A DNA stretch of 64,000 bases from a virus (IMGVR_UViG_3300047547_000167:28928-92927), one strand, 5' to 3'; positions 16,038 through 54,608 are shown, numbered from the stretch's first letter. Translations and numbers: made by a program. Notes: a model not told the origin generated them from the sequence alone.

Positions 16038-17201
16038 ATGCCAAAACTCACCAAGACCACCATCGACAACCTGAAGCCCGCCGCCACCGAGCAGTGGGTC
16101 TGGTGCTCCGAGCTCCCCGGCTTTGGGGTGCGCTGCCAACCCAGCGGCAACAAGACCTACATCGCCCGCTACCGCACCCAGGACGGCACCCAGCGCAAGC
16201 AAAAGATCGCCCGCACCTGCGACATGCCACCGGACAAAGCCCGCGACCTGGCGCGCAAGGTCTTCGCCGCCGTAGCCGAAGGCAAAGACCCCAAGCAGGA
16301 CCAGCGCGACGCCAAAGCCGCGCCAACGGTCGCCGAAATGTCGGCCCGCTACATGAAGGAACACGCCGAGCCCTTCAAGAAGGACGCCAGCGTGCGCAGC
16401 GACGCCAACAACTGGCGCCTCCACATCCTGCCAGCCATGGGCAGCAAAAAGGTGCGCGCCATCACCAAAGCCGACGTGCTCAGCCTCATGGGCAAGATGA
16501 CCGACAAACAAGCCGCAGCCAACCAGGTGGTGGCCCTGCTCAGCAAGTCCTTCAACCTCGCCGAAGACTGGGGCTGGCGAGACGCCAACAGCAACCCCTG
16601 CCGCCGCATCAAAAAGTACAAGATCGCCGAAAAAGAGCTGATCCTCAGCCCCGCCGAAATCGGCACGCTCGACAAGACCATGACCGACATGGTGGGCAGC
16701 GGCACCCTGCGCCCCGAGTTCGCGTCCTTCATCCGCCTGCTCATGCTCACCGGCTGCCGCAAGAGCGAAGTCATGCTGGCCCGCTGCGAGTGGATCGACC
16801 TGGAACGCGGACTCCTGCTCCTGCCCGACTCCAAGGTCGGCCAGCGCAAGATCGCCATGTCGCCAGCAGCCATCCAGATCGCCAAGGCGCTCATGGCCAA
16901 CGGCGGCGAATGGCTCATCCCCGGGCGGCGCGTCGGCAAGCCGCTCCAGACCCCGTACAAGGTGTGGAAGGCCGTGAAGGAAGCCGCAGGCCTGCCCATC
17001 GAACTGCGCCTCCACGACCTGCGCCACAGCGCCGGGTCACTGGCACACATGGCCGGCGCCAGCCAGAAGCAGGTGGCCACCATGCTGGGCCACAGCCAGC
17101 TCAGCACCACCGAGCGATACCTGCACGGCCTGACCGGCGACGCGGCCGCCACAGCGGCCAAAATCGGCGACGTGATAACGAAGGCATGGGCCACGGCGTG
17201 A
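16038..17201 (+). CDS. int: tyrosine integrase with arm-binding domain
   Basis: W..ELPGFGVR...KTY arm domain; TGCRKSE, HDLRH, LGHSQLSTTERY catalytic residues. Confidence 0.95.
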   Translation: MPKLTKTTIDNLKPAATEQWVWCSELPGFGVRCQPSGNKTYIARYRTQDGTQRKQKIARTCDMPPDKARDLARKVFAAVAEGKDPKQDQRDAKAAPTVAEMSARYMKEHAEPFKKDASVRSDANNWRLHILPAMGSKKVRAITKADVLSLMGKMTDKQAAANQVVALLSKSFNLAEDWGWRDANSNPCRRIKKYKIAEKELILSPAEIGTLDKTMTDMVGSGTLRPEFASFIRLLMLTGCRKSEVMLARCEWIDLERGLLLLPDSKVGQRKIAMSPAAIQIAKALMANGGEWLIPGRRVGKPLQTPYKVWKAVKEAAGLPIELRLHDLRHSAGSLAHMAGASQKQVATMLGHSQLSTTERYLHGLTGDAAATAAKIGDVITKAWATA

Positions 17202-17210
17202 TGCCACAAT
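17195..17210 (+). promoter_or_regulatory. putative late promoter motif (variant)
   Basis: GGCGTGATGCCACAAT, upstream of the TraR/DksA-like gene. Confidence 0.55.
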
Positions 17211-17213
17211 ACC

Positions 17214-17236
17214 AGCGGCCCCAATCCGGGGCCGCT
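17214..17236. terminator. hairpin downstream of the integrase
   Basis: AGCGGCCCC-aatcc-GGGGCCGCT; no clear U tail. Confidence 0.45.
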
Positions 17237-17253
17237 ATCACGTCGAGAACAGA

Positions 17254-17481
17254 ATGAGCCTTGAAGACAACGCCCAAGACTACGAAGCCAAGGAATGGGC
17301 GGCCAGGAACGCACCACGGCCAGAGCGCCCAACATACGCTCCAGGCGACGCCGGGTATGGCCCCGAGGAATGCGATCAGTGCGACGGAGCCGTGCACCCC
17401 GTGCGCCGAGCCAACGGCTGGAGGCTGTGCACGTCGTGCCAGTCGGCACGCGAGATCGTTACTGCCCGGCTGGCGCGCTGA
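17254..17481 (+). CDS. TraR/DksA-like C4 zinc-finger protein
   Basis: N-terminal LEDNAQDYE; CDQC...RR...LCTSCQ..RE. Confidence 0.8.
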   Translation: MSLEDNAQDYEAKEWAARNAPRPERPTYAPGDAGYGPEECDQCDGAVHPVRRANGWRLCTSCQSAREIVTARLAR

Positions 17482-17773
17482 GAGCCTCCACGACCTGCCG
17501 GTGGCGGTCCTGGCAGTCGCGGTACATCCGCGCCGTGTTCACACCCCAGCGCAGCACGGCGCCAGCAGTCCCGTCCACGGGCTCACCGAGATCAGGGCAC
17601 GGCTGGCGAAGGCTTGCCGGAATCGTTGTGGCCTCCGTGGATGGCATCGGAGAGGACGCGCAGCCCATCAGGATCGAGGCAGACATTGCGGTAAACAGGC
17701 CGCTCCACAATCCGGTCCACCGTCTCGGTGATGACTTGGTACACGACACGCTCGCGCTCCTTGAAAACTTCAT
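17459..17773 (-). CDS. o-spanin (Rz1-like lipoprotein)
   Basis: lipobox ILMGC, Pro-rich, later Cys residues; overlaps the i-spanin in another frame; start uncertain. Confidence 0.75.
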   Translation of the reverse strand: MKFSRSASVSCTKSSPRRWTGLWSGLFTAMSASILMGCASSPMPSTEATTIPASLRQPCPDLGEPVDGTAGAVLRWGVNTARMYRDCQDRHRQVVEALSAPAGQ

Positions 17774-17948
17774 GGGTGGCCGCCGCCGTGTCGGCCTTGC
17801 GGGCACGCAGGCGCACCAGCTCGGCAGCATCCTCGCGCCGCTCCAGCTCGGCAGAATCGCGTCGCCAGCCCTGAGCCTTCCAGCCCGCGCCAAATGCCAC
17901 AGCAGCCGCCACAGCGGCGACAACCAGGTGCGACTGGAACGGGATCAC
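17592..17948 (-). CDS. i-spanin (Rz-like)
   Basis: N-terminal TM, GWKAQGWR, coiled coil, VYRNVC. Confidence 0.8.
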   Translation of the reverse strand: MIPFQSHLVVAAVAAAVAFGAGWKAQGWRRDSAELERREDAAELVRLRARKADTAAATHEVFKERERVVYQVITETVDRIVERPVYRNVCLDPDGLRVLSDAIHGGHNDSGKPSPAVP

Positions 17949-18568
17949 GCCAGCGCTCGGTCGGCGGCCAGCGTCACCTCGGCGCGGTGCTCAATACCCA
18001 CCGTGCCGCCATTCACGCGGCGCGTGACCTTCACGATGTTGTCCATGATGGAGTCCGGCAGGTTGCCCTCCCACCACGCCACGGATGCGCGCAGCGCGCA
18101 CTCAGGCTGCGCCAGGAGGTCGGGGTTGCCCGTCAGGTCCACACCAATGGCGCGGCCCACGGCGGTGTAGTTGTCCCGGCCGGTGACCTGGAGCAGACCG
18201 CGACCCCGGAAGCGGAAGCCGTCGCCATGCTGCATGTTGCCCATGCGGCCGCTGTAGACGTAGTTCGCCAGGCCCTCGGGGTTGCGCACGTAGGGAGCCG
18301 CGTCGGCCGGCGTGCGGAACCGGCGCGGCCACACTTTGCACAGGCGGTCGGCGCTGGTGTACGTGAGGCCTTCCTCGACGCGCTCCAGCATGCCGGACTC
18401 GTGGAGCACCTGACCCAGGAAGTCGCCCAGCTCGGACGCGCCAGCGCTGAAAGAGCCGTCTGTGATGACGGCAGAGAATACGGGGGCCCAGCGGGTTGCC
18501 GTGGCGCGCTTGACGCCGCAGCGCGTGAGAATTTCAGTCCACTGGGCGGGAGTCTTGGAAATCGTCAT
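17945..18568 (-). CDS. endolysin, glycoside hydrolase family 19
   Basis: FLGQVLHES, ANYVYSGRMGN, GDGFRFRGRGLLQVTGRDNY, TRRVNGG. Confidence 0.92.
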   Translation of the reverse strand: MTISKTPAQWTEILTRCGVKRATATRWAPVFSAVITDGSFSAGASELGDFLGQVLHESGMLERVEEGLTYTSADRLCKVWPRRFRTPADAAPYVRNPEGLANYVYSGRMGNMQHGDGFRFRGRGLLQVTGRDNYTAVGRAIGVDLTGNPDLLAQPECALRASVAWWEGNLPDSIMDNIVKVTRRVNGGTVGIEHRAEVTLAADRALA

Positions 18569-19231: not shown

Positions 19232-19261
19232 TTTTCGGATCGTTTGGGTGTGACTGGGCAG

Positions 19262-19277
19262 ATTCTGGCGTCACGAC
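19262..19277 (-). promoter_or_regulatory. putative late promoter motif
   Basis: GTCGTGACGCCAGAAT upstream of the lysis cassette. Confidence 0.75.
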
Positions 19278-19286
19278 GACCGGGTG

Positions 19287-20525: not shown

Positions 20526-23500
20526 TTACAGGACAAACACCCGCAGGTCGCGCACAACAGGCCGGAAGGCCGTGCCGCCGGACAGCACCAGCTTGATCTG
20601 CACCGCTGTCTCGTTGATGCCGGTGGCCGAGTGAACAAACTCCACGAAGCCGTCGTCCACGTTGCGGGTGGTGGGGCTGGTGATTTCGGCCCACACGTCG
20701 CCGCCGTCGATGCCCTTCCAGTAAGCCTGGACGGTGGCACCGCTCGGGATGATGGCCTCGTAGATGATCTTCACGGCAACGCTGGCCCCGCCAGGGATGG
20801 CGCGGGTCACGTAGTCGCCGGTGGCCGCGACCTGGCCGGCCACAAGCTGGGTGCCGGGGTGCAGCACAGCCGACCAATCGGCGGTGCCGTTGATCTTCGC
20901 GGACACGGCCACTGTACCCGTGACTGCAGATGGCAACCGGATCGACTGACCATCCGATGCCGACACGGTGGACGCATCGGGCAGGGTCAACAGGTACTCC
21001 ACGCCGGTGGCGCTGGCTGGCGTCTCTGCGTAGGACATGAGCAACAGGTCGGTCGCCGCCGTGACGTTTGCGGAGCCCAGCGCCACAGTGCGGGTGGTCT
21101 GGGTGAAGGCCGCCGAGAGCAGGCGAAACGCCATGTCGCGGTCTTGGTGCGGCGTCCAAGTGCTGGCGTTGCTGGACGACAGCAGCACACCCACGGTGTA
21201 CGGCTGGCTGGTGATCCAGCGCTGCGCGTTGCTGTCGAACTTGCCCAGCTCAGCCACGGACAAGGCACCCACATCGTCGTCGCACAGCACCACCAGGGCG
21301 TATTCGACGCCGCCCAGCAGCGTGACAGGAGATGGGAACACCACCCGCGTGTGGCTTCCGTTGGTGACGATGGAGCCACTCGGAATCACCACGTTGGCGA
21401 TCACGGTCTGGTTAGGCAGCCCTGTATCGGTGGCCCGCACCTGGAGCCGCACGGGCGTGGTTGGCGCAGCCGTGAACCAGAGGTCCACCGCCGTCGCCTG
21501 GGTGCCGGACACGAGGGTGAAGGTTTGAGCCAGGGGGTCGCTGCCGCCGCCTTCAAACACCACAGCGGGAGCCGGGGGTGGCGGCGACTGCCAGCGGCGC
21601 TCGTTGATCGTCGTCTGGCTCTGCCAAGTCTGACGTTCCAGCGTGCCCTGGCCTGAATACACCGCGCTTCCCGAGCTTCCACCGGCACCCGTGAAGACAA
21701 CCGACTTGCTGCCCGACGGCACGCCGCTGGGCACCGTGAATGTGCCAGTGACCACGCCGCCGCCGTTGGCCACAGCGCCGCCAGTGGGCAGGCTCAAGCC
21801 GTCAAACGTCAGCGACTGGAGCACCTCGCCGCCGCCGAAGCCAGACACGCTGTACGACACCGTCGTCTGGCGCAGCGTCTCCACCGCGCTGAAAGACGTG
21901 TTAATCAGGGCGGTACGCGTGCTGGACGACGTGTCGGACTGATCTCCCCAGCCGAAAGTGAAGCGCTGCGTCAGAGGCCCAGCCCAGTCGGACTGAACCA
22001 CCGTCCAGCGGTCAACCGATGGCGTCAGCGTGACCTGCGCGGGCACCGGGGCAAACGACAGATACGGGTTGATCTTCATGGAGCCCGTTCGCAGGGACTG
22101 CTCCAAGGTGATCACGTCGGTGTATGTCAGCGTCGTGGGCGTCGCCACATCGGCGGACATCTGCAACACCACGCCAGTGATGGGCAGCATGAGCAATCCG
22201 CTAACAATCGCGGCAGACTGCACAGTCCCGGCGTCGCGCTGGCTGTCATCTAGGAACGGGTCAACGAACAGCCCTTTCTTCGTGCCACCCTCGCGGGTGT
22301 GGATGCTCGACTCCAGGCGCTGCTGTGCGATCAGCTGGGCCAGCAGGTCCATGCGGCCATCAATCGCGGCCAGCGTGGGCATGGGCACCACGCGCACGCC
22401 GTCATTGATGACGCGGCGCGCAGAAGTCCAGGTCTGATAGACCGTGGAAATGGACAGCAGGTCGCCGGGAACAGTGGGGAATTGCGGATTGGCGTCCGAC
22501 GACACGCCGTGCAGCCACACAATCGCGCCGGACTGGTCCAGGCACAGCTTGTCGTAGCGTGGCAGCATCTGGCTGTAGGTCAGCAGGATCAGGGTGCCGG
22601 TGACGGCGCCGGTGACCGTGAGGCCCGTTTCATCGACCAGCGTGGGCGTCACCAGGGTGATGTAGCGGTAGGTGCACGAGTACGTGCTGCCGGGGGCGGG
22701 CTCTGCGCCAGGCGGCGTCCAGTCCACCTTGCCAGCGGTCAGGACGTAGTCCGTGCCCTGGGTGTAAATCGTGGCACCCTGGGACACCTCCATGATCTGG
22801 AGCACCGACGTGTCGGGGAGCTGGTCCTGAGCGCCGGTGAACACGCCGTGCGTGAGCGTCACCGTCTTCTCGGCTGTGATCGAAACGGCGGTAACAGCGG
22901 TGCCCGGCGCGCGGTCGAAGTTGACGCGCTGCGCAGCGGTGCCCGTGGATAGGTGCGGCTCGTTGGTGATCAGCTTCAGGTCCGGGTCGGAAGCCAGCGT
23001 CAGGCGTCGCCCGGTGGGGTGCTCCACACTGAAGCCGAACACGCGCGCCCGGCCCTCGGACAGCGAGTAAACCTGATTGCCACCGACATCGGGCAGCGCC
23101 TTCAAGTTGAAGCCAGACACCACATAAGCGCCGCCCGCGCTGTCACGGTCGTAGCGGGCCAGCGCCTGGTTCACGCCGTCCAGATTGGGCGGCGGCTCTT
23201 TGGACTGCGCGAAGCCGTTGGACACCTCGTAGACGGGGTAGAACTCCCCCGTGGTCACGCCGTCGCCCGACCAGCCCCAGGCGGCATCCACGCGCAGGCG
23301 CTCGGCACCCGGCGAGTTGTAGTTGCGCGTTCCAGTTGCAGGGTCACGCAGGTCTGGGTCTTGGAGCGATGTGACAACGCTCTCGGTCAGCCGGACGCCG
23401 ATGGCAATCGTGCCTGTGGTGGGCACGGTGAAGGCCGCCGGGGGCACGCCACGCACGGCCCCACGGATGTAGACGGCACCGGACGCGCACTGCACGGCAC

Positions 23501-23717
23501 CGGTGATCTCGTCCACCACAACACCGGCATCGCGGATGATGTCGCCGTCCTTGAAGATGGCATCGGCCAGCCCCTTGGTGCGGTACGCGGCCGTCTTCTG
23601 CACCTCGTTCAGCTCTGCGGACTGAAGGGCCCTGCCAGCAATGAACAGGTGCTCGTCGTAGTTGTCGGCCGGGTCAAACCGGCTGTAATACTGGCTCGGC
23701 ATCGTGGCCATAGTCAT
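20526..23717 (-). CDS. large baseplate/tail protein (DUF4815-like)
   Basis: YYSRFD...LFIAGRALQSAELNEVQ, KGLFVDPF, DPLAQTF. Confidence 0.8.
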   Translation of the reverse strand: MTMATMPSQYYSRFDPADNYDEHLFIAGRALQSAELNEVQKTAAYRTKGLADAIFKDGDIIRDAGVVVDEITGAVQCASGAVYIRGAVRGVPPAAFTVPTTGTIAIGVRLTESVVTSLQDPDLRDPATGTRNYNSPGAERLRVDAAWGWSGDGVTTGEFYPVYEVSNGFAQSKEPPPNLDGVNQALARYDRDSAGGAYVVSGFNLKALPDVGGNQVYSLSEGRARVFGFSVEHPTGRRLTLASDPDLKLITNEPHLSTGTAAQRVNFDRAPGTAVTAVSITAEKTVTLTHGVFTGAQDQLPDTSVLQIMEVSQGATIYTQGTDYVLTAGKVDWTPPGAEPAPGSTYSCTYRYITLVTPTLVDETGLTVTGAVTGTLILLTYSQMLPRYDKLCLDQSGAIVWLHGVSSDANPQFPTVPGDLLSISTVYQTWTSARRVINDGVRVVPMPTLAAIDGRMDLLAQLIAQQRLESSIHTREGGTKKGLFVDPFLDDSQRDAGTVQSAAIVSGLLMLPITGVVLQMSADVATPTTLTYTDVITLEQSLRTGSMKINPYLSFAPVPAQVTLTPSVDRWTVVQSDWAGPLTQRFTFGWGDQSDTSSSTRTALINTSFSAVETLRQTTVSYSVSGFGGGEVLQSLTFDGLSLPTGGAVANGGGVVTGTFTVPSGVPSGSKSVVFTGAGGSSGSAVYSGQGTLERQTWQSQTTINERRWQSPPPPAPAVVFEGGGSDPLAQTFTLVSGTQATAVDLWFTAAPTTPVRLQVRATDTGLPNQTVIANVVIPSGSIVTNGSHTRVVFPSPVTLLGGVEYALVVLCDDDVGALSVAELGKFDSNAQRWITSQPYTVGVLLSSSNASTWTPHQDRDMAFRLLSAAFTQTTRTVALGSANVTAATDLLLMSYAETPASATGVEYLLTLPDASTVSASDGQSIRLPSAVTGTVAVSAKINGTADWSAVLHPGTQLVAGQVAATGDYVTRAIPGGASVAVKIIYEAIIPSGATVQAYWKGIDGGDVWAEITSPTTRNVDDGFVEFVHSATGINETAVQIKLVLSGGTAFRPVVRDLRVFVL

Positions 23718-23719
23718 CC

Positions 23720-24202
23720 TCAGAAAGTGATCACAACTTCAAAGCTCTCGCGGATGGCCGGTGAGCGGTAGATGGGCCCGATGTTCTCCAGGGACAGCAT
23801 GCGGCCGGGGCTGGAAACCTGGGCGGGGGTGAAATACTCCTGCCCAGGTGGCAGGCCACCCACCGTGACGGTGCCCACGAAAACCGCGATTTCACGGATG
23901 ACCTCGGACAGGCCGTCCTCGAAGTCGAAGGCTGTGCGGATGTAGAGGTGGTTGGTAGGTGTCACCGACCGGCTGAATGTTGCGTCGTTTGGCAGCACAA
24001 TGTTGCCGCCAGCGTCAGGCACCACGAAGGCAACCTCGGTAGCGGTCCGACGCCCGATCTCAGCCTGCAGGGCTGTTGCAACCAGGGATTCGGCGGGTGG
24101 TGTGACCCACGCGCCATCGCCGCTACCCCAAGCCAGGTGTATGGCGCGCAGGGCGATGGACTCGGCGATAGATACGCGGCCAGCGTCAACAAGGATAGAC
24201 AT
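23720..24202 (-). CDS. baseplate/fibre-attachment protein
   Basis: HLAWGSGD..W...L..EIGRR, IREIAVF. Confidence 0.7.
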   Translation of the reverse strand: MSILVDAGRVSIAESIALRAIHLAWGSGDGAWVTPPAESLVATALQAEIGRRTATEVAFVVPDAGGNIVLPNDATFSRSVTPTNHLYIRTAFDFEDGLSEVIREIAVFVGTVTVGGLPPGQEYFTPAQVSSPGRMLSLENIGPIYRSPAIRESFEVVITF

Positions 24203-24226
24203 CGGTGCTCCAAATTTCCTGGGGCC

Positions 24227-24242
24227 ATTGTCGCGTCACGAC
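24227..24242 (-). promoter_or_regulatory. putative late promoter motif
   Basis: GTCGTGACGCGACAAT. Confidence 0.75.
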
Positions 24243-24273
24243 GAGCCGCGTCGGTCTGAGATCACGCGGCCGA

Positions 24274-24561
24274 TTACACCAGCCCGGAGGCGTCCAGCAA
24301 TCCGGCGACCGCTAGGGTGGCCACAGCAGGCAAGGCCCAATCGAGGATGGCCTTTTGGTTCCAGGCCCTAGCCTGTCGAAGCGGCGCGAACGCGGGCATG
24401 CTGGACCGCTTGCCACCGTAGTAGTGCTCAATCAAACGGTACTCGGCCTGGGCGTATTCGCGCCCCACGAAGTACCAAGCCCCCGCAGCTGCTCCAACCC
24501 ACCATCCGAAGACTGGGGCTGTGCAGAGCTGGATAAAGATGGCGAGCGGGACGTGGTGCAT
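24274..24561 (-). CDS. small membrane protein
   Basis: hydrophobic; GREYAQAEYR...DW..P. Confidence 0.65.
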   Translation of the reverse strand: MHHVPLAIFIQLCTAPVFGWWVGAAAGAWYFVGREYAQAEYRLIEHYYGGKRSSMPAFAPLRQARAWNQKAILDWALPAVATLAVAGLLDASGLV

Positions 24562-24783
24562 TTACTCACCGTTTTGCTGATGTGTTTTTGGACAGATCAC
24601 ATCTTGATTTGTCATGACCCGCGCCTTAGCAGTCTCCGCATGCGGAGACTGGCTAGATTTGCCAATCTCTGAGTTGATGTGGGCAAACAATGGCGCTGCA
24701 AGGTGATAAGGCAGTTGCTGCAACGCCTTATCAATGATTGCGAGTTGGTCCTGCGTGAATGTAATGTTCATTTCTTTCCTCAT
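24562..24783 (-). CDS. hypothetical protein (fibre-associated)
   Basis: LAIIDKALQQLPYHLAAPL; AT-rich. Confidence 0.6.
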   Translation of the reverse strand: MRKEMNITFTQDQLAIIDKALQQLPYHLAAPLFAHINSEIGKSSQSPHAETAKARVMTNQDVICPKTHQQNGE

Positions 24784-24820
24784 GCGTTGTAAATTGATAC
24801 TTTGATAGTGTACTATTAAT

Positions 24821-24846
24821 TTTTAGTGTTGCATCACGACGAGGTT
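24821..24846. repeat. 26-bp direct repeat, copy 1 (contains the late motif at 24825-24840)
   Basis: TTTTAGTGTTGCATCACGACGAGGTT, identical to 26259-26284. Confidence 0.9.
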
Positions 24847-26236
24847 AGCCGGTTGTGCCGTTGTTGATGAGGCCCATGTCTGCGAGCGCGGCAAGCAGGT
24901 CAGACAGCGCAGCGTTACCACCTCGTGACCCCGTGATTGTAGGCTTGGAAACGGGAGTCGCGCCGAAAAAGCCGATGCCAGTGGTATTGATCCGAATTTG
25001 TTGAGCTGTGCTCCCGGCGGACAGAACAACGCCACCCCCACCCTTGCCTCGCAGAACAAGGTCAATGTCGGTATCTGCGCCATCAGCAATCAAGTGTGGG
25101 TTGCCCCCAACCCCGAATGCAATTGCCCGGATGTGGTTTACAGGCGACCCAAAGCTAGCGTCTTCGACGCGAAGCGTAAGCCCGCCATTTGAGATAAGCT
25201 GGGTCTCATGGTTAGCGAAAACGATCTGCTGATGGGCGTTGGCTGCGTTTACATCCGAGCGGATTGCTGCGCCCAGGTAAGCCCCAGTTTTCCACTGGAT
25301 GACATGGCCCTTCGCCATCTCCATGGCAATGCCTAATCCAGTGATGCCATCAGTCCCGGCAATCGCATTGGCGCCAAATACGATGCCCTTTGCATATCTA
25401 TTGCCAGCTGCCGCAGACTCAGAGTTGATGATGCCGATGCAGCAAGAAACGTTTTGCAGCAGCGCGCCCTGGCCGTTCGCCTGCAAGCCCTGGGCGGTTT
25501 CTCCACCAACCCCAAACCAAGCCGTTGCAGTTGTGCCATTAGCCCCGGTCAAGTACGGGTTGACCTCGACCGCCGGCTGCAAGCTGCACACATCCAGCTC
25601 AATCGCCGTTGTAAAAAAGTTCGACTGCTCGTGGGCGGCGTGTCCGTAGATCGCCCAGGCCGACTTTGCTAAAGCTGGATTCGTGTTGTCATTCTTCGCG
25701 AAGAATGCCCCGCCTATGGTGTTGAGCTCCTCGGGCAGTCCATCCGATGTGCGAGAGGCCCCGGCAATACCGATTCCGCCGATTGACGAAAATGAGGCAA
25801 AACTGCCACGCGTCTCAAAGTACGTCATGTACCCATTGGCCGAGTACCCAACCCACGATTTTTGAGAGCCTCCAGCCTTTGTTCCAGCCCCCTCCGTGGC
25901 AGCGTCGTCAACAAACACGCGGCGCCCCATGCGGAAAAGACGCCCAGGCGTTGGGTCATCATCCCAAAACCCGGCGGGTGCGGATGCGGTCGCCGCAACA
26001 CGGGCGGCCTCGGGCGTGCTGTAGTCCTGCGTTGCGATAACGCTCCGCATCTTGCCCTGAGCACTCGTAGGAACAGCGCCCGCACCTGCCGGGAGGTAGC
26101 CAGGATACGTTCCCAACACCCAATCAGCCAACGCCGACAGCGGCGAGCGCCGCGTCACCACGTTCTGCACCAGGGGGACGATCTCAGCCCCGGTAAGCGG
26201 GAGCGCGGGGTCGAGTTCGGTGATTTTCTTGGTCAT
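24845..26236 (-). CDS. tail fibre/spike protein (paralogue 1)
   Basis: KITELDPA N-terminus, LADWVLGTYPGY, DTDIDLVLRGKG; Gly-rich. Confidence 0.75.
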   Translation of the reverse strand: MTKKITELDPALPLTGAEIVPLVQNVVTRRSPLSALADWVLGTYPGYLPAGAGAVPTSAQGKMRSVIATQDYSTPEAARVAATASAPAGFWDDDPTPGRLFRMGRRVFVDDAATEGAGTKAGGSQKSWVGYSANGYMTYFETRGSFASFSSIGGIGIAGASRTSDGLPEELNTIGGAFFAKNDNTNPALAKSAWAIYGHAAHEQSNFFTTAIELDVCSLQPAVEVNPYLTGANGTTATAWFGVGGETAQGLQANGQGALLQNVSCCIGIINSESAAAGNRYAKGIVFGANAIAGTDGITGLGIAMEMAKGHVIQWKTGAYLGAAIRSDVNAANAHQQIVFANHETQLISNGGLTLRVEDASFGSPVNHIRAIAFGVGGNPHLIADGADTDIDLVLRGKGGGGVVLSAGSTAQQIRINTTGIGFFGATPVSKPTITGSRGGNAALSDLLAALADMGLINNGTTG

Positions 26237-26262
26237 GGTTTTATTTTCTTGGTCATGGTTTT
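26223..26262. repeat. perfect 20-bp tandem duplication over the start codon
   Basis: ATTTTCTTGGTCATGGTTTT x2. Confidence 0.9.
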
Positions 26263-26284
26263 AGTGTTGCATCACGACGAGGTT
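26259..26284. repeat. 26-bp direct repeat, copy 2 (contains the late motif at 26263-26278)
   Basis: identical to 24821-24846; minus strand GTCGTGATGCAACACT. Confidence 0.9.
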
Positions 26285-26378
26285 GGGTGACACGCCGCTG
26301 CGCTGATTCACCACGCTGAAGACGTGGATGTCGCCAACTTGAACCAACGCAATACAGCGAGACGCCCTATCACACACG

Positions 26379-27797
26379 TCAATCAATGATTGCCAGTTTT
26401 CTCTGATTACCAAGAGAATCTTTTATGACAATGAACCCGGTAATTAAAGAATCCACCGTGGCCGCATGAATACCAAAACGCACCAACCCGCTACCTTTAC
26501 CCAGCAAAGTGAGGTCTATATTTGCATCCACACCCTGGGGTAGAATCACAGGCCCATTTCCGGGGCCGCCACCGTAGATGTTGATGCCGCATGTGCTGGC
26601 GCTGTCACTGGTCAGCGTAAACAGTGCGTTCTCGCCGCGCCTCAAAGACATTTCGGCAGTGTTTGCTAACATTCCCCACTTGATTGCGGATGTGTTGGCG
26701 CCAACAATTTCAAACGCTGTGTTGCCCGCCGCGTTGTACCATCGGATTGCGTGGGCACCACCGATGCCCTCACTTGACATAGCGATAGCTTCGCCGCTTG
26801 TCAGAGAGTTACGCATAAAAACGATGCCACTGTTCCAGGTGTTGAACGCGGAGCTTTCCCCCGCAAGCACGACCATCGCAGCGGTGGCCGGTGCGGTTGG
26901 CGATCCAGCAAAGCGCTCATCTCCACCAGCTGCATACCAAGAGCCGTACATGCCCACAACTTGCGCGTTTGGCGTCAGGACTGCGTTGTTGCCTTTGTTC
27001 TTGGCTCCGATCTCAATGCCGTAGACTGATGCATCACTGATCTCCCGCTGCATCTCAAAAATAGAACCCCAGGCGTAAGAGCCTGGTCGATTTGCGATTA
27101 CGTTTACACCTAGGCCAATCGCTTCCTGGTTCGTGTCTGAAGTTCTAACTCCTGCGACGAACATGTACGGCACATCGTCATAATCCGGGGTGCTCGAAAC
27201 AACAACCTTGCCGTTTCGAGCCAAGTAGTGCGCAGATATGCCGGCGTCAGCAAACCAGCTCGTCCCCGCATTCGCGGTGTCTTCTCCAGACAACTTAGCT
27301 GCCGCATCCCCAATAAACACCCGGTCGGCAAATCGCCAGATGTTCTGCCCATCCGCCCAATTCGGCCTTCCGCCTCGCAAAATACTCAATTTTCCAGAAT
27401 CGGTTAAAGCCTCCCAGCGAGCGGCGGGATCGAGAAAAAATGCCACTTTTTTTGGGGTAATTGGCGCGGCAAATTTATAGCTGGACACCGGGCGCCCAAC
27501 AAAAGTGTAAATGCCGTTTTCTGCTGCAGCCAAAAACGCATCCGAGTCATCCCCGCTACCGCTACCTGATCCGCCATAGTCTTTGACGCTGCTGGCCATT
27601 TCGCGCAGCTTTTCCTGCAGGCTTCTGCGAACGCCGCCCAAACCCAACGGGATGTAACCAGGGTATGTACCAACCACCCAGTCAGCCAAGCCACCCAGCA
27701 AGGTCTTCTTGGTAGCGCCAGCGTTGACGACCGGCAGAGCGTCCGCCGAGGACAGCTCTGAAGCCTGAGTCATTTCCGAAATTTTGATGATTGACAT
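26379..27797 (-). CDS. tail fibre/spike protein (paralogue 2)
   Basis: KISEMTQA N-terminus, LADWVVGTYPGY, DANIDLTLLGKG; visibly lower GC. Confidence 0.75.
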   Translation of the reverse strand: MSIIKISEMTQASELSSADALPVVNAGATKKTLLGGLADWVVGTYPGYIPLGLGGVRRSLQEKLREMASSVKDYGGSGSGSGDDSDAFLAAAENGIYTFVGRPVSSYKFAAPITPKKVAFFLDPAARWEALTDSGKLSILRGGRPNWADGQNIWRFADRVFIGDAAAKLSGEDTANAGTSWFADAGISAHYLARNGKVVVSSTPDYDDVPYMFVAGVRTSDTNQEAIGLGVNVIANRPGSYAWGSIFEMQREISDASVYGIEIGAKNKGNNAVLTPNAQVVGMYGSWYAAGGDERFAGSPTAPATAAMVVLAGESSAFNTWNSGIVFMRNSLTSGEAIAMSSEGIGGAHAIRWYNAAGNTAFEIVGANTSAIKWGMLANTAEMSLRRGENALFTLTSDSASTCGINIYGGGPGNGPVILPQGVDANIDLTLLGKGSGLVRFGIHAATVDSLITGFIVIKDSLGNQRKLAIID

Positions 27798-27828
27798 TGC
27801 GTTACTCCATTTTTTTAACTGGCCGCGA

Positions 27829-29199
27829 TCATTCTTCAGCCCCCAGCAGGCGTCCGCTTTCGGTCAGGATGTAGAACTCGCTCTCCGCGACCACAGCGGT
27901 ATCTGGCGAGACAAGCGCGGCCAACAGCTCGTCGCTCTCGGTTGTGAGGTACTCGGACGCCTCGGTGAGCAGCAGCTCCTCGGGGGTGAGCAGGCGTGTG
28001 ACCTCGCTGCGCACCGCCGGGCCAATTGCCGCCCAGGTCTCGATGTCGCTCCACGCGGATGGCCGCTCCCAGCTCTGCTGGTACTCCACCCGTGCGTAGT
28101 GGGTGCGGTAGTCGCGGACGTGCAGTGCGGCCCGGACGATGTACTGGAAGCCAGCCCACGTCTCGGCGCCCCACGGCAGGTCCACCCAGGCTTGGGACGG
28201 CACGACCACGTGCGCGAGCCCCCGGCGGACCTCGCGCACGTTGAACAGCGCGGGGTGATTGAGCACGATGCCGGTGCCGTCGCTCAGCACCAGGGTGTTG
28301 TCCAGCGTCTGGCCGCCTTCCATCAGCGCCACACCAGACCTCTGCCGCAGCACACCCAGGCGGGCCACGTGACCGGCAGACCCGTCCACGCCTGACGTGT
28401 GGGTGATGAGCGGTGGCAGGCTGATAACGCCAGCGGCGCGGTTGCGCTCGATGACGGCATTCACGGCATCCCATTCAACCGTGGAGCGCGCCACGGGCTG
28501 GATCAGGTGGTGCCCTACCCGTTGGCCGTCCTGAAACTTGGCCGACCCCGACAGCTCGGAGTTGTCCAGCTGGAAAATCTCGCGCCAGGGCTCCTCGATG
28601 CGGACATCAAACCCGGTGGCGTCGAGGATGGCCAGCTCGATGGCGCGGGCGTTGTTGCGGGCGCGGAAGGCCTCGCGCGGGATGCGTATGCGCAGAGCGG
28701 CATCCGCCTCGCCGGGCAGGCGTGGCACGCCGTACAGGGCAGCCCAGAGGTCGAGCCATTCGCCTTCGGCGGTGCCAATGACCATTTGCAGCAGCGCCTG
28801 GCGCACCTGCTCCTTGGCCCCCAGCACCTCGTCGGCGTAGCCGCTCAGCAGCACCCACAGCAGGGAGGTGAAGCCCGTGATGTGGTCGCCATTGGACTGC
28901 GCCTGGTCGCCCGAGCCCTCCACCAGCACCACGGCGGACAGGCCGGAGAATTTCGTGGACAGCGACTCGACGGTGAACCCGTCGGCAACCAGCGCGGCGG
29001 CCAGCCCACCCACGGTGTACTGCCGCAGGTCGTGGGTGACGGACAGCATGCCAGCGGTGGCCGTGAGCACGCGGTCTGCAATTTCCCAGGACGCGCCATC
29101 GGCGTGACTGAGCCGGAACGCCAGCTCAGCCGCAGGCGCAGCGTCAAACACCGCAGCATGCGGGTATTTGAGCAGCCGCTGGAGCGCCGTCTGGGTCAT
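27829..29199 (-). CDS. baseplate wedge protein
   Basis: AEGEWLDLWAALYGVPRLPGEAD..LR.RI motif; follows the baseplate J-like gene. Confidence 0.75.
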   Translation of the reverse strand: MTQTALQRLLKYPHAAVFDAAPAAELAFRLSHADGASWEIADRVLTATAGMLSVTHDLRQYTVGGLAAALVADGFTVESLSTKFSGLSAVVLVEGSGDQAQSNGDHITGFTSLLWVLLSGYADEVLGAKEQVRQALLQMVIGTAEGEWLDLWAALYGVPRLPGEADAALRIRIPREAFRARNNARAIELAILDATGFDVRIEEPWREIFQLDNSELSGSAKFQDGQRVGHHLIQPVARSTVEWDAVNAVIERNRAAGVISLPPLITHTSGVDGSAGHVARLGVLRQRSGVALMEGGQTLDNTLVLSDGTGIVLNHPALFNVREVRRGLAHVVVPSQAWVDLPWGAETWAGFQYIVRAALHVRDYRTHYARVEYQQSWERPSAWSDIETWAAIGPAVRSEVTRLLTPEELLLTEASEYLTTESDELLAALVSPDTAVVAESEFYILTESGRLLGAEE

Positions 29200-30290
29200 A
29201 GCGCCGTGACAGTCAGCGCGCCAGCCACCAGCGCCTCACTGGGGCCGCATACGATGTTGGCCGTGGAGCCGGGCACGATGGACGCCACGCCGGGCGCGGC
29301 CAGCATGGACTCGACCAGCGAGCCCAGGTACAGCGTGGCCCCGGGCGGGACGGCGGCAAGCTCTGCGGCCATGATGTCCCCCAGGCGCTGCTCCACGGTG
29401 CTGTTGAGCGTGTAGCCGTCGAACATGCCGACCTGCACGGCCAGTGGCACGGCACGCTCCACCATGGGGAGCACCTGAATCTCGACCCCGGCAGATCGGT
29501 ACCCGGGCGTGATGACGCCCAGCTGGTCGTCGCGGCTGCCTTCGAGCAGTGCTTGGGCGGCCTCCAAAATCTCTGAAGATGGCTCGCCACGGTTGGTGTA
29601 GAGGTAAATCCGAACCAGGCCAGGCTGCTCATCGAGCCCGGCGCGGGTGACGTATTCGAAGACGTTGCCGTCGGCATCCAGCACCACAGGCGACCGTGCG
29701 GCATAGAGGCACGCATACACGGTGCCGCGCGACAGCGCGCCGACAAACTCGGCGAACCGCGCCTCGCGCTCGGCGTCGGTCTCTGGGTCGCGCCCGGTGG
29801 TGATCGCCGGATTGCTGACGGTGTAGCCGTCGCCGAACGCCGACGATACCGTGATGAGCCCGGCTGCGATGTTGCCCACCAGGCCGGGTGTGCCAAACGA
29901 CACGGGCACGCGCACCACGGTCTGGCTTGCTGCCCAGGTGACGGCTGCCGTGGACTCGTAGACGCGGCCATCCACGGCGGTGAACACCGTGCCAATCGGG
30001 ATGGCCAGCGGCGACACCACGGGGGCCGGGCGGGAGATGCTGACGAACCCGGAGGCGCGCGCCGCCGGTAGCTTGGTGAAGCCGAACGACTGGAACGTGG
30101 CCACCGGAATGGCGTCGCGCAACCCCAGGAACATCTGGAGGTAAAGCTCCTCCATTTCCACGGCTGGGGCTTCCATGAGCGTGCGCGCCACAGAGCCCGG
30201 CTGGAAGTCGGTGATCTTGGTGGTGACGCTGCGCGCGTGGTTGATCTGCGCGGCGACAATCGAAACAAAGTCCTTCAGCTGGAACGGCAC
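29196..30290 (-). CDS. baseplate J-like protein
   Basis: ITDFQPGSVARTLMEA, GRDPETDAER. Confidence 0.88.
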   Translation of the reverse strand: MPFQLKDFVSIVAAQINHARSVTTKITDFQPGSVARTLMEAPAVEMEELYLQMFLGLRDAIPVATFQSFGFTKLPAARASGFVSISRPAPVVSPLAIPIGTVFTAVDGRVYESTAAVTWAASQTVVRVPVSFGTPGLVGNIAAGLITVSSAFGDGYTVSNPAITTGRDPETDAEREARFAEFVGALSRGTVYACLYAARSPVVLDADGNVFEYVTRAGLDEQPGLVRIYLYTNRGEPSSEILEAAQALLEGSRDDQLGVITPGYRSAGVEIQVLPMVERAVPLAVQVGMFDGYTLNSTVEQRLGDIMAAELAAVPPGATLYLGSLVESMLAAPGVASIVPGSTANIVCGPSEALVAGALTVTAL

Positions 30291-32106: not shown

Positions 32107-32122
32107 ATTCTTGCGTCACGAC
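32107..32122 (-). promoter_or_regulatory. putative late promoter motif, 6 nt before ATG
   Basis: GTCGTGACGCAAGAAT-GGCGGC-ATG. Confidence 0.8.
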
Positions 32123-41149: not shown

Positions 41150-41165
41150 ATTCTGACATCACGAC
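41150..41165 (-). promoter_or_regulatory. putative late promoter motif, 6 nt before GTG
   Basis: GTCGTGATGTCAGAAT-TCCGGT-GTG. Confidence 0.8.
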
Positions 41166-41167: not shown

Positions 41168-41183
41168 GACGTGACGACACAAT
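41168..41183 (+). promoter_or_regulatory. putative late promoter motif, 6 nt before ATG
   Basis: GACGTGACGACACAAT-CAGCGC-ATG. Confidence 0.75.
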
Positions 41184-41189: not shown

Positions 41190-42050
41190 ATGAGCGCACT
41201 CAGTTACAAGATCACGTTCTCCGCCGGGGCACTGCTTGACCTCTCGGCAGGCATCAACGCCAAGGTGGCGCCGCTGCTCAACAAGACGGTGCGCGCGGTG
41301 GCCCAGCAAACCGTCATCGACTGGCATAAGGCCGTGAACCAGGCCAAGCTGTGGAGCGGCGAGAAGGAAGCCTACATCCAGAGCATCAAGTGGGAGATGA
41401 CGGGCGACTTCAGTGCCATGGTCGAAGCCGACTACAAGCACGCCGCCGAGATCGAAACGGGGCGCGGGCCCCGCGACCTGAAGAAGATGCTCGACACCAG
41501 CAGCAAGGTCAGGCGCACCAAGGACGGGCGCCGGTTTCTGGTTATTCCCATGCGACACAACACGCCAAACAACACCGCGCACGCGAGCGCGATGCCCGGC
41601 GCCGTGCACAACCTGGCGTCAGCCATGGCGCCGTCGCGGGTGGTTTCCACTGGTCAGCGCCCCAGCGGCGAGGTCACCAACCTGTCCCCGAAATCCGGCA
41701 TGTCAGCGGCCAGCAAGCAGAGCCCGTACCTGAGCAACCCCAAGACCAAGCAGGCCTCCATGGTGGCTTCGCAGAAGTACGCATGGGGCGGCCGGTTGAC
41801 GATGGGGGCGCTCAAGGGTGCGGGGCTGGATGCCGCGACCGCCCGCCGCTACGCGGGCATGGTCAAGTTCCCGGACGGGTCGGGCGGCCACAGCCATGTG
41901 ACGTTCCGCGTGATGATGGAGGGCGCGACCGGCAAGTGGGTCATCCCAGCTCAGCCGGGCAAGTTCCTCGCCCGAAACGTGGCCCAGGCCATGCAGCCGA
42001 AGGCCGAGGCGGCATTTGCAGCCGCCGTGAAAAAGACCGTCAGCGGCTGA
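41190..42050 (+). CDS. putative neck/tail-completion protein (inverted orientation)
   Basis: A.EIE.G..PRDLK.ML...K.R..KDG.RFLVIP, TFRVM...W..P; basic protein. Confidence 0.65.
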   Translation: MSALSYKITFSAGALLDLSAGINAKVAPLLNKTVRAVAQQTVIDWHKAVNQAKLWSGEKEAYIQSIKWEMTGDFSAMVEADYKHAAEIETGRGPRDLKKMLDTSSKVRRTKDGRRFLVIPMRHNTPNNTAHASAMPGAVHNLASAMAPSRVVSTGQRPSGEVTNLSPKSGMSAASKQSPYLSNPKTKQASMVASQKYAWGGRLTMGALKGAGLDAATARRYAGMVKFPDGSGGHSHVTFRVMMEGATGKWVIPAQPGKFLARNVAQAMQPKAEAAFAAAVKKTVSG

Positions 42051-43770: not shown

Positions 43771-43786
43771 ATCATCGCATCACGAC
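43771..43786 (-). promoter_or_regulatory. putative late promoter motif
   Basis: GTCGTGATGCGATGAT, directly after a terminator. Confidence 0.7.
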
Positions 43787-43787
43787 G

Positions 43788-43810
43788 AAAAAAGCCGCCC
43801 GGAGGCGGCT
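43788..43810 (-). terminator. intrinsic terminator
   Basis: AGCCGCC-tccg-GGCGGCTTTTTT. Confidence 0.85.
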
Positions 43811-47371: not shown

Positions 47372-47377
47372 GAGCGA

Positions 47378-47393
47378 ATTCTTGCGTCACGAC
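47378..47393 (-). promoter_or_regulatory. putative late promoter motif, 6 nt before ATG
   Basis: GTCGTGACGCAAGAAT-TCGCTC-ATG. Confidence 0.8.
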
Positions 47394-53011: not shown

Positions 53012-53017
53012 CGTCAG

Positions 53018-53033
53018 AGAATACGGTCACGAC
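53018..53033 (-). promoter_or_regulatory. putative late promoter motif, 6 nt before ATG
   Basis: GTCGTGACCGTATTCT-CTGACG-ATG. Confidence 0.75.
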
Positions 53034-53064
53034 ACCCCTGATTCTTTTGGATGAGAGACTTGCC

Positions 53065-53448
53065 ATGAATTGTGTGCTCTTACGCTGCGCCGCACAAGAA
53101 CAGGGGGGGCAAAGGGTGGGGAACGACAATCGCGCTCGGATTGAGCGCGCCGAGAGGTATGCAAAGTCGGACGAGGGGGTGAACGCGAGCCTTGGTGAGA
53201 TGGCGGAATGCGCATGCATGAGCCGCTTTCACTTCGCCCGCGTTTTTCGTGACGTTACAGGCAAGACTCCGATGGAGTACGTGCTCGAACAGAAGATCGA
53301 GTGCGCCAAGAGGCGGCTGGCCACGGGGCGCTGCAGTATCGCAGCCGTCGCGGCGTTGTGTGGGTTTTCAGACCAGTCCCACATGACGCGGGTGTTTAGG
53401 CGCAACCAGGGAGAAACCCCGGCGCAATTCAAGCGCCGCCAAGAATAG
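53065..53448 (+). CDS. stand-alone AraC/XylS-family HTH regulator
   Basis: SLGEMAECACMSRFHFARVFR..TG.TP.EY...IAAVAALCGFSDQSH.TRVFR...G.TP..F; start at 53065 or 53116. Confidence 0.88.
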   Translation: MNCVLLRCAAQEQGGQRVGNDNRARIERAERYAKSDEGVNASLGEMAECACMSRFHFARVFRDVTGKTPMEYVLEQKIECAKRRLATGRCSIAAVAALCGFSDQSHMTRVFRRNQGETPAQFKRRQE

Positions 53449-54586
53449 CGCGAAGCTCATCCCCGAACGCCGGATCGTCGCCGGGGGCGTCCTCGATCAC
53501 GGGCACCCAACGGCCACGGCAGTGCGGGTGGGCCAGCCCGGCTGGGATTTGCCACATCTCGTCAGGCTCGCGGTCCACCAGCACGTCGCCGACGCGCTTC
53601 TTCGGAGAGGCAGAACGGCCCACGTTGTTCTTTCCCGGCCAGATCATGGTGTCGGGGTTTTTGTCCGGGCGGTCGGCGGCGACAACCGTGACCACGCGGC
53701 CATCGATGCTGCGGCAGAAGGCGCACGCGCCCTCGTACCGCTCCACGCGCTGGACCTTGGTGCCGGGCTTCAGGCTGGCGATGTAGCCCTGCAGCTGGGC
53801 CTCGCCCGCCTCGGTGACGGCGATGCGCCGCCAGTCCCGATTGAGGGCGCCGAACTCGTCCAGCAGCTTGGTCTCCAGGCTGCTGGTGCCCGGCGGCAGG
53901 TTGCCCAGAGCCCGCTGCTCCAGATCGGCGACTACCACGGCGCGCAGGCGGTGGCGGGTGTTGTCGGACAGGGCCTGAACGTGCTCGGCTGCGCGGGCGC
54001 GGGCGAACGTGAGCACGGCCTGGGTGGCTGCCGACAACGCGGTGGCCTGCGCAGCCGACGAAGGCAGTGCCGCCAGGATGGCGTCGGCCTGCTTGGCGGT
54101 TGGCGTCTTGCCTTCGAGATTGGCCTGCACCTTCCCCATCATCGTGGCCTTTGTGGCGAGCCAGTCGGCCTCGGCCACCAGCTCGCCAGCGGGCAGGTGT
54201 CGCTGCACCACGTACTCGATGGCGAGAAGGTGGTCGTCCAGCGTCCAGACGGCGGGCGGCAGGCTTTCCAGGTACAGGCGGGCCAGGGACAGCTCGGCCT
54301 CGTTCCAGCGGGAAAGCATGCCGGGCGGTGTGGGCTGGATGGATGCGGTGGGGGTGTGATTCGCGCCAGACTGCCAGGCCAGCAGCTGCTGGTGCACGGC
54401 ATCCAAGCGGGCCAGGCCGCGCTCGGTAAACAGCTCGATCAGGCGGCGCACCAGGGGGGAATCGTGGGGCTTCCAGATGCCGTCCTTCCCGTGGTCGTGG
54501 CCGTCGGAAAGCGCTTTGTAGAGCCCCTCCAGCATGTCGTTGGTGGCGCGGATCGGGACGTGCAGCAGGTCGAGGAATAAGCCCAT
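53429..54586 (-). CDS. head morphogenesis protein (SPP1 gp7/Mu gpF-like)
   Basis: RDWRRIAVTE, ACAFC, HPHCRG. Confidence 0.82.
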   Translation of the reverse strand: MGLFLDLLHVPIRATNDMLEGLYKALSDGHDHGKDGIWKPHDSPLVRRLIELFTERGLARLDAVHQQLLAWQSGANHTPTASIQPTPPGMLSRWNEAELSLARLYLESLPPAVWTLDDHLLAIEYVVQRHLPAGELVAEADWLATKATMMGKVQANLEGKTPTAKQADAILAALPSSAAQATALSAATQAVLTFARARAAEHVQALSDNTRHRLRAVVVADLEQRALGNLPPGTSSLETKLLDEFGALNRDWRRIAVTEAGEAQLQGYIASLKPGTKVQRVERYEGACAFCRSIDGRVVTVVAADRPDKNPDTMIWPGKNNVGRSASPKKRVGDVLVDREPDEMWQIPAGLAHPHCRGRWVPVIEDAPGDDPAFGDELRAILGGA

Positions 54587-54592
54587 CCGGGC

Positions 54593-54608
54593 AGTGTCGC
54601 GTCACGAC
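54593..54608 (-). promoter_or_regulatory. putative late promoter motif, 6 nt before ATG
   Basis: GTCGTGACGCGACACT-GCCCGG-ATG, directly after a terminator. Confidence 0.8.

Follow-up and report, generated by a model that had tools for sequence, protein, structure and literature searches.

A conserved GTCGTGA element as the probable late promoter, with predicted leaderless starts, of a little-studied clade of temperate myoviruses

The 64,000-nucleotide stretch IMGVR_UViG_3300047547_000167:28928-92927 (the window) comprises bases 28,928-92,927 of a single viral contig of 92,927 bp with a GC content of 64%. The contig carries repeated copies of a short oriented element, which, judged from its sequence context, is very probably a phage-specific promoter without a -35 box. 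A block of minus-strand genes extends from window position 17.6 kb to the end of the window and wraps around to genome positions 1-21.6 kb; it contains the lysis, tail, baseplate, head, portal, and terminase genes. The early block, at genome positions 21.6-46.4 kb, has genes on both strands, including those for thymidylate synthase, primase, helicase, SSB, and RdgC, recombination genes, several homing-endonuclease-like genes, and a tyrosine integrase gene. The major capsid protein groups the phage with myoviruses with genomes of approximately 90-95 kb: Bordetella phage PHB04 (genus Phabquatrovirus), Aeromonas phage ST4, Pseudomonas phages Dolphis and Jeremy, Yersinia phage fHe-Yen8-01, Escherichia coli phage ECML-606-1, and Enterobacter phage phiT5282EW. 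Pseudomonas phage Touem01 and Morganella phage Mecenats66 are more distant relatives. The gene order agrees with that of the annotated relatives, and the capsid protein is distantly related to those of Thermus phages, with approximately 31% sequence identity. Relatives from the clade are integrated as prophages in chromosomes of Microvirga, Cupriavidus, Paraburkholderia, Pseudomonas, and Methylobacterium, which, together with the presence of the integrase gene, indicates that the phage and its clade are temperate.

The element is 16-18 bases long and consists of GTCGTGAY, three bases, and A-N-A-A/C-T. The full consensus, (T)C-GTCGTGAY-GC-N-A-N-A-M-T, in which the box is often preceded by TC, is longer and tighter than the form given in a first-pass annotation of the window. 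That annotation had listed twelve copies, all of which were found on the strands assigned to them (Table 1). A search of the window for GTCGTGAYGCNANAMT with up to two mismatches gave 15 matches, seven of them exact, compared with 1.48 expected (standard deviation 1.16; maximum of five in 100 shuffled sequences). Scoring of the whole 92,927-bp genome with a weight matrix derived from the sites identified 16 strong sites with scores of at least 18.4, above a background of at most 15.1. The genome contains 17 sites in total; five strong ones are outside the window, at genome positions 4416, 9149, 14285, 18063, and 18791, all on the minus strand.

Sixteen of the 17 sites are located wholly inside the non-coding 11.3% of the genome (binomial P ~1e-14), as counted after the correction of two over-extended starts of open reading frames (ORFs). 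Every site is aimed at the next co-oriented gene, as had been noticed for the copies in the window. The copies at 43771 and 54593 each directly follow a GC-rich hairpin with a T-run, in agreement with the earlier observation of two copies immediately after terminators. The A at position 2 and the T at position 6 of the hexamer, previously described for the copies in the window, are present in all 17 genome sites. The first-pass annotation had also found no copy before early genes. This is correct in that the early region contains no other strong copy, but the copy at 17195 precedes a TraR/DksA-like gene. The best remaining matches in the early region score 13-15 and are inside genes or antisense. 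A simple scan of the early region for canonical sigma-70 promoters found none at window positions 1-17600 and one at genome positions 21,000-30,000, which is not above the number in shuffled sequences.

Table 1. Copies of the element and associated features of the phage genome. Positions refer to the window unless marked as genome positions.
Feature	Position	Strand	Remarks
p75, 75-amino-acid helix-turn-helix (HTH) protein	8843..9070	-	First gene of the helicase-SSB-primase operon; HTH_23 E=4e-5, below curated cut-off
Promoter copy GGCGTGATGCCACAAT	17195..17210	+	Score 21.4; shares 7 bases with the 3' end of the integrase gene
TraR/DksA-like zinc-finger gene	17254..17481	+	phrog_54 E=1e-7
Promoter copy GTCGTGACGCCAGAAT	19262..19277	-	Exact match; 30 nt ahead of the first gene of the lysis cassette
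Promoter copy GTCGTGACGCGACAAT	24227..24242	-	Top score, 26.4; ahead of baseplate and tail-fibre genes
Promoter copy GTCGTGATGCAACACT	24825..24840	-	41-nt AT-rich leader, then 73-amino-acid gene
Promoter copy GTCGTGATGCAACACT	26263..26278	-	ATG 6 nt downstream; ahead of low-GC 463-amino-acid gene
Promoter copy GTCGTGACGCAAGAAT	32107..32122	-	N6, then ATG of 395-amino-acid baseplate gene; predicted leaderless
Promoter copy GTCGTGATGTCAGAAT	41150..41165	-	N6, then GTG of 278-amino-acid adaptor gene; half of back-to-back pair
Promoter copy GACGTGACGACACAAT	41168..41183	+	Score 18.8; N6, then ATG of opposite-strand 286-amino-acid gene; pairs with 41150
Promoter copy GTCGTGATGCGATGAT	43771..43786	-	10 nt ahead of head-to-tail adaptor ATG
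Terminator-like hairpin GCCGCCTCCGGGCGGC + T6	43787..43809	-	Directly upstream of the 43771 copy; read from sequence
Promoter copy GTCGTGACGCAAGAAT	47378..47393	-	N6, then ATG of prohead protease gene; predicted leaderless
Weak promoter copy GTCGTGACCGTATTCT	53018..53033	-	Score 14.6; hexamer TATTCT; N6, then ATG of 1516-amino-acid helicase-domain gene
AraC-family HTH gene	53065..53448	+	HTH_18 E=4e-24
Promoter copy GTCGTGACGCGACACT	54593..54608	-	N6, then ATG of 385-amino-acid head-associated gene; predicted leaderless
Terminator-like hairpin CCCGGCCTTGCGCCGGG + T9	54609..54634	-	Directly upstream of the 54593 copy; read from sequence
Zn2	genome 20693-21082	-	129 amino acids; ORF just downstream of Zn1
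Zn1	genome 21075-21641	-	169-188 amino acids; opens the late-strand block, next to 550 bp of intergenic DNA

The anatomy of the element was derived from 49 sites pooled from four genomes, those of this phage, PHB04, Dolphis, and fHe-Yen8-01, with the last T of the hexamer set as position -7. The box GTCGTGA occupies positions -22 to -16 and is almost invariant. It is followed by Y at -15 (C in 65% and T in 35% of the sites, giving TG at -15/-14 in about a third), G at -14 (76%), and C at -13 (55%). In the hexamer N-A-N-A-A/C-T, A-9 and A/C-8 are preferred, positions -12 and -10 are the most variable, and A-11 and T-7 are present in 49 of 49 sites, a frequency that, like the others within the motif, is partly circular because the matrix selected the sites, whereas the flanks were not selected. 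Nothing is conserved upstream of -24: the information content is at most 0.11 bit at every position from -45 to -25, with no TTGACA-like -35 element and no upstream activator site. Downstream of the hexamer, the enriched bases are C at -1, A at +1, T at +2, and G at +3.

An ATG is positioned exactly 6 nt past the hexamer (N6-ATG) in 21 of the 49 sites and 5-7 nt past it in 25, compared with a chance expectation of approximately 1% per position. In this genome, ten of the 17 sites have N6-ATG or N6-GTG, and the remaining copies have leaders of 10-43 nt. Because transcription by the sigma-70 holoenzyme usually starts six bases past the hexamer, transcripts from the N6 sites are predicted to be leaderless, with the mRNA beginning precisely at the ATG for about half of the copies. 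This prediction was not part of the first-pass annotation. At the N6 sites, the promoter occupies the space of the Shine-Dalgarno sequence. The GenBank annotation of PHB04 independently sets the starts of the portal gene, the protease gene (gp022, counterpart of the gene behind 47378), gp015 (site 14013+, counterpart of 41168), and gp030 (counterpart of 54593) on an N6-ATG. The homology detected by tblastn extends to the N6 start codons, including one case in which the Dolphis annotation picked a later start. For the gene behind the 32107 copy, the homology to the Dolphis ortholog begins one codon after the Dolphis N6-ATG. The site orthologous to 41150 has N6-ATG or N7-ATG in PHB04, Dolphis, ST4, fHe-Yen8-01, and Touem01.

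The other copies differ in their surroundings. The copy at 24227 has a 24-nt leader with a GGAG Shine-Dalgarno sequence before the ATG, as checked by eye. The copies at 24825 and 26263 share 24 identical bases (CCTC, the 16-mer, and AAAA); behind 26263, a second in-frame ATG is present within a 20-nt tandem duplication that repeats the start codon. The weak copy at 53018 has a similarly weak counterpart, with a score of 10.5, a few bases ahead of the PHB04 ortholog gp025, and the holin gene of PHB04 is also preceded by a site (90374-). The copy at 17195 is followed by a hairpin and is 43 nt ahead of the TraR/DksA-like gene; the Dolphis TraR gene is preceded by the same GGCGTGA variant and a hairpin (site 38758-). 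The hairpin in the window (17,211-17,253), GGCCCC-AATCC-GGGGCC, is stable and directly follows the promoter copy, and the hairpin at the TraR position of Touem01 bears a T-run. The hairpin could be the terminator of the integrase gene, or an attenuator read through by transcripts from 17195. The 286-amino-acid gene behind 41168 (window 41,190-42,050, plus strand) is located amid head-tail genes, has no Pfam family, and is kept in every relative with 31-56% identity; it always has its own promoter copy, back to back with that of the adaptor gene.

The fixed distance to the ATG could in principle be an RNA-level signal, and these phages encode several DNA methyltransferases. The element might accordingly be an RNA processing or translation signal before start codons, or a DNA site for a repressor, packaging, or methylation. 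Such a function is very improbable. About half of the copies are 10-43 nt from the start codon and hence are not tied to the ATG. A -10 hexamer shows just this conservation pattern, in which A-11 and T-7 are invariant while -12 and -10 vary freely; copies are found after terminators and form the divergent pair 41150/41168, as expected of promoters. Furthermore, a methylation or packaging site would not be oriented with respect to strand and gene in 17 of 17 cases. A hairpin-type promoter, similar to those of phage N4, was also considered and rejected: some PHB04 copies approach a palindrome (TTGTCGTGACACGACAAT), but the corresponding stem cannot form in most copies of this genome.

The element, together with its layout and the N6-ATG, is conserved among relatives with GC contents from 47% to 65% and is also found in many prophages. 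PHB04 has 13 sites with scores of at least 16, Dolphis 13 sites, Touem01, the capsid protein of which is only 41% identical, approximately ten, the 41-kb piece of ST4 five to six, and fHe-Yen8-01 (47% GC) six. The E. coli phage ECML-606-1 has nine exact matches on one strand only, compared with none on the other strand and none in the control. Mecenats66 has two to three relaxed copies, such as TCGTGATGGGATAAT ahead of the ortholog of the 41150 gene. Orthologous positions are kept ahead of the portal, protease, baseplate, holin, ADP-ribosyltransferase, and TraR genes, and of the back-to-back pair of the adaptor and 286-amino-acid genes.

In a reverse test, 2.9 million IMG/VR contigs were scanned for exact GTCGTGAC-N3-ANAMT-N6-ATG, and at least 119 matching stretches were found. 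Among the matches listed (119), 95 encode homologs of proteins of this phage, mostly from the head, portal, and baseplate modules, and many of the other 24 listed stretches are only 1-5 kb long. Among these matches, the motif thus appears almost confined to one phage lineage of Alpha-, Beta-, and Gammaproteobacteria, and close to diagnostic of it. The near-confinement to one clade favours a phage-encoded reader, since a generally good host promoter would serve other phages too. A literature search covering these phages, their genus, and the motif found no published description of these promoters. The computational evidence indicates that the element represents a real, strongly conserved, and clade-specific promoter class, and its predicted function as a promoter is well supported by computation.

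The element is probably the core promoter of the late transcription units, which comprise the virion, lysis, and packaging genes and a few accessory operons, and would be used by the host polymerase together with a phage factor. The first-pass annotation had proposed a promoter in which a CGTGA box replaces the -35 element and is read by a phage factor. The computational analysis supports this proposal through the A-11/T-7 signature, the lack of -35 conservation, the ATG spacing, the placement relative to terminators and operons, the conservation, and the confinement to the clade. In the proposed mechanism, host core RNA polymerase with a sigma-70-family factor would melt the hexamer. The promoter would remain silent until a phage factor made early in the infection recognises the GTCGTGA box and brings in or stabilises the polymerase. 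At the N6 copies, transcription would start on the A of the start codon and produce leaderless mRNAs. The logic of the factor would be that of the late promoters of phage P1. The hexamers match TATAAT poorly and mostly have no T at -12; because of the poor hexamer and the missing -35 element, the promoters are expected to be silent without the phage factor. The promoters must also be off in lysogens, because the phage is temperate and the lysis cassette is directly behind one copy.

It is improbable that the element is a self-sufficient promoter for the host holoenzyme alone, either an unusual extended -10 promoter of sigma-70 or a promoter of an alternative host sigma factor such as RpoS, with the timing set by, for example, a repressor or DNA replication. 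The hexamer has the A-11/T-7 signature of the sigma-70 family, and the frequencies at -15 to -13 together with a frequent C at -8 would be compatible with such recognition, as RpoS favours C at -13. The protein scans described below gave no phage sigma factor or RNA polymerase. However, the most invariant part of the element, GTCGTGA, reaches to -22, past the known contacts of sigma-70 region 3.0, and the hexamers are poor for a promoter of this kind. The pattern is nearly limited to one clade across very different hosts and GC contents, and 17 constitutive promoters in a temperate phage would express the holin and endolysin in lysogens.

It is also quite improbable that the whole 16-18 bp is one element recognised by a sigma-like factor of the phage or by a non-canonical phage RNA polymerase, in the manner of T4 gp55 at TATAAATA or of single-subunit polymerases at promoters of approximately 20 bp. 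The element does form one contiguous block that ends approximately 7 nt ahead of the start site and lacks an upstream companion, and several conserved proteins of the phage have folds that are unknown; Zn1 and Zn2, described below, could be such a factor. Nevertheless, Pfam and PHROG scans of approximately 50 early-region, small, and large proteins detected no phage sigma factor (region 2 or 4 of sigma-70, or gp55-like) and no RNA polymerase domain, although remote homologs are possible. The five large proteins encoded at 55323-63524 are not conserved in the relatives that keep the motif, and the predicted structures of Zn1 and Zn2 are those of mixed or beta-rich zinc proteins, unlike the helical sigma factors.

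Candidates for the phage factor that cooperates with the host polymerase were picked from the non-structural, non-replication genes conserved in all relatives. The reader of the box may, as a weak inference, be the adjacent conserved cysteine-rich pair Zn1/Zn2, encoded outside the window, although the odds are somewhat below even. It would more doubtfully be the HTH protein p75, and the remaining probability belongs to some other, unseen factor. The first-pass annotation had named as candidates a winged HTH protein (1680-2000), the AraC-like protein, the TraR-like protein, and genes outside the window. Zn1 and Zn2, which are better candidates, are located outside the window. The winged HTH protein has no homolog in any of five relatives, and the AraC-like and TraR-like proteins are absent from fHe-Yen8-01, which has the canonical motif, and from Mecenats66, even at E-values up to 1. 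All three were rejected as the universal factor because they are not conserved across the clade. The TraR/DksA-like gene is best regarded as a member of the regulon and not the universal activator.

Among 50,697 phage records, Zn1 is present only in the nine phages of the clade, and 95 metagenomic homologs have 33-80% identity to it. The residues C17, C29, C49, C52, H58, C75, C78, C91, and C94 are invariant, and the predicted structure is confident, with a predicted local distance difference test score (pLDDT) of 88. Comparison of Zn1 with Pfam gave only one sub-threshold match, to a PHD finger, and no Ogr_Delta or other regulator family; profile-based comparison with PDB sequences and the ESM Atlas was uninformative. 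Zn2 is conserved in five of five relatives with complete genomes (40-51% identity) and is next after Zn1 in 99 of 128 loci. Its invariant residues are H36, C38, C41, C60, C63, C76, C78, and C95. The model of Zn2 is likewise confident (pLDDT 84.5) and beta-rich, and part of it weakly resembles the zinc ribbons of polymerase-binding factors, which may be taken as a lead only.

The 128 Zn1 loci, 2.0 Mb in total, contain 161 matches to the motif, compared with six in a reversed-sequence null, and 109 of the 140 distinct matches are on the strand of Zn1. Of 103 distinct loci, 23 carry GTCGTGA in the 250 nt upstream of Zn1. The Zn1 start is flanked by two divergent canonical sites in distant prophages, and a variant of the (G)TCGTGAT-ACCATT type precedes Zn1 by 40-60 nt in many relatives. 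In this genome, a perfect GTCGTGAC box upstream of Zn1 (genome 21,650-21,675, minus strand; L002:6650-6675) is 11 nt instead of 2 nt from a CATAAT hexamer, which is followed by a hairpin. The box upstream of Zn1 may be an autoregulatory site. The 550 bp between Zn1 and the first rightward early gene (genome 21,641-22,190; L002:6640-7180) contain many GGAACC/GGTTCC repeats in both orientations, and similar repeats are present upstream of Zn1 in the relative L017, the Zn1 of which has 48% identity. The repeats could be iterons of an origin or immunity operators. The first rightward early gene (genome 22,179-22,544, plus strand; L002:7179-7544) encodes a 121-amino-acid protein with two DnaJ-type CxxCxGxG motifs and is preceded by the extended -10-like sequence TGGTAGAAT.

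Several observations weigh against a late promoter read by Zn1 and Zn2. The two proteins have no detectable similarity to any known transcription factor. The fold of Zn1 matches no solved structure (Foldseek E >1; wide VIA-align search, Z at most 2.7), and Zn2 matches generic zinc ribbons only, those of Elf1 (Z 4.8), TFIIS (Z 4.0), and Rpb9 (Z 3.5). The boxes near Zn1 would fit mere membership in the regulon equally well as an autoregulated activator, and Zn1, which adjoins the GGAACC array, could equally bind those repeats in an origin or immunity function. Mecenats66 keeps both Zn1 and Zn2, yet it has few copies of the motif. Its Zn1 is the most divergent (30%), a pattern that fits co-variation of the box and Zn1 and proves nothing. 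The near-invariance of the box leaves little scope for detecting co-variation, and a de novo look at the 35 Zn1 loci without strong matches was too noisy and revealed sub-threshold copies only. p75 is equally clade-restricted, being present only in the eight phages with the strong motif among the same phage records, and its match to Sigma70_r4_2 (E=0.045) is the only sigma trace in the protein scans. The label "late" is based on gene content only. Finally, sites with T as the Y have TG at -15/-14, contributed by the downstream half of the box, so host sigma-70 could be recognising part of the motif as an ordinary extended -10 element. The complete picture, an undescribed system in which two orphan zinc proteins, Zn1 and the tandem zinc-ribbon protein Zn2, redirect the host polymerase to promoters that combine a GTCGTGA box with an adjoining weak -10 hexamer, with about half of the late operons leaderless, is accordingly offered as a tentative one, and it is more probably wrong than right in at least one of its parts.

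The genome has several further features of note. At least four endonuclease VII/HNH-type genes are scattered in the early region (window 5921-6394, 9235-10092, and 14224-14949; L002:8700-9293), are not present in the relatives, and probably encode homing endonucleases. Upstream of the integrase gene, the reverse strand of window positions 15,795-15,845 resembles the 3' end of a tRNA, with the T-arm, acceptor stem, and CCA; ARAGORN found no whole tRNA in the window. This stretch probably serves as the attP core, with a host tRNA gene as the integration target. Five successive large genes (209, 453, 530, 511, and 1017 amino acids) at 55,323-63,524 on the minus strand, downstream of the portal gene in a long operon, have no Pfam match and no homolog in PHB04, fHe-Yen8-01, or Dolphis. 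PHB04 has a 2097-amino-acid methyltransferase gene and an anti-restriction gene at the matching position, and the five genes may be variable cargo encoding anti-defence or virion-delivered proteins. Window positions 24,800-27,800 form a low-GC island (56-58% versus 64%) with two genes of approximately 465 amino acids that have neither a Pfam match nor a homolog in the relatives. The island looks like a recently acquired or duplicated host-range cassette.

If the proposed function is correct, one short sequence suffices to map late transcription across an entire, little-studied phage clade, which reaches from phages of Bordetella, Pseudomonas, Aeromonas, Yersinia, and E. coli to prophages in soil and plant-associated bacteria. 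Gene starts can also be corrected with the motif, as the N6-ATG is missed by several of the annotated ones. The predicted leaderless late regulon is the most unusual feature of the promoter class; if real, a largely leaderless late regulon would be unusual in Proteobacteria, hosts in which leaderless translation is thought to be rare. The unstudied pair of zinc proteins could, if it reads the box, represent a novel type of late activator. An E. coli phage retains the motif, which makes the system amenable to standard E. coli tools, and a tight, compact, factor-dependent promoter could serve as an orthogonal expression switch.

The element can be compared with several types of promoters that have no -35 element. 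Extended -10 (TGn) promoters similarly concentrate recognition at approximately -17 to -7; however, TG at -15/-14 is found in only about a third of the sites here, and the invariant -22 to -16 box has no counterpart in them. The Thermus phages P23-45 and phiYS40 have -35-less middle and late promoters and many leaderless transcripts, and their phage proteins redirect the host polymerase. The late promoters of T4 (TATAAATA), which are used by gp55 with gp33 and the sliding clamp, are also compact single elements near -10 that have no -35 element and serve all late genes, but the element described here is twice as long and GC-rich, and no homolog of gp55 or gp33 was detected in the Pfam and PHROG scans. 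The Ogr, B, and Delta activators of P2, 186, and P4 are small zinc-binding (zinc-finger) proteins that turn on the late operons of temperate Proteobacteria phages by way of the host sigma-70 polymerase, as is proposed for the candidates Zn1 and Zn2. The sites of Ogr-type activators are dyads centred near -55, whereas nothing is conserved upstream of -24 here, and Zn1 has no Ogr_Delta match.

The late promoter class of phage P1 appears to be the closest known analogue. Lehnherr and Arber reportedly recognised a conserved -22 box in the P1 late promoters. P1 is a temperate myovirus with a genome of approximately 93 kb, and many of its late operons are preceded by a -10 hexamer and, at approximately -22, a conserved spacer box, but by no -35 element. 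The analogy to this box drawn in the first-pass annotation is borne out in that the architecture, a spacer box and a -10 hexamer without a -35 element, is the same and the sequence of the box differs. The P1 late mRNAs are not known to be leaderless. No early-region protein was assigned by PHROG or Pfam to a family of late promoter activators, a search that did not include a direct comparison with the Lpa sequence, and tblastn searches with Zn1 and p75 gave matches in the clade only, P1 not among them. Unlike in P1, only Y-G-C separates the box from the hexamer here, and the structural genes of the two phages are unrelated. The P1 late promoters require Lpa (gp10), which is described as a polymerase-binding factor (PMC8198154). 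In P1, this one early phage protein acts with the host RNA polymerase, and the same dependence is proposed for the promoters of the clade described here.

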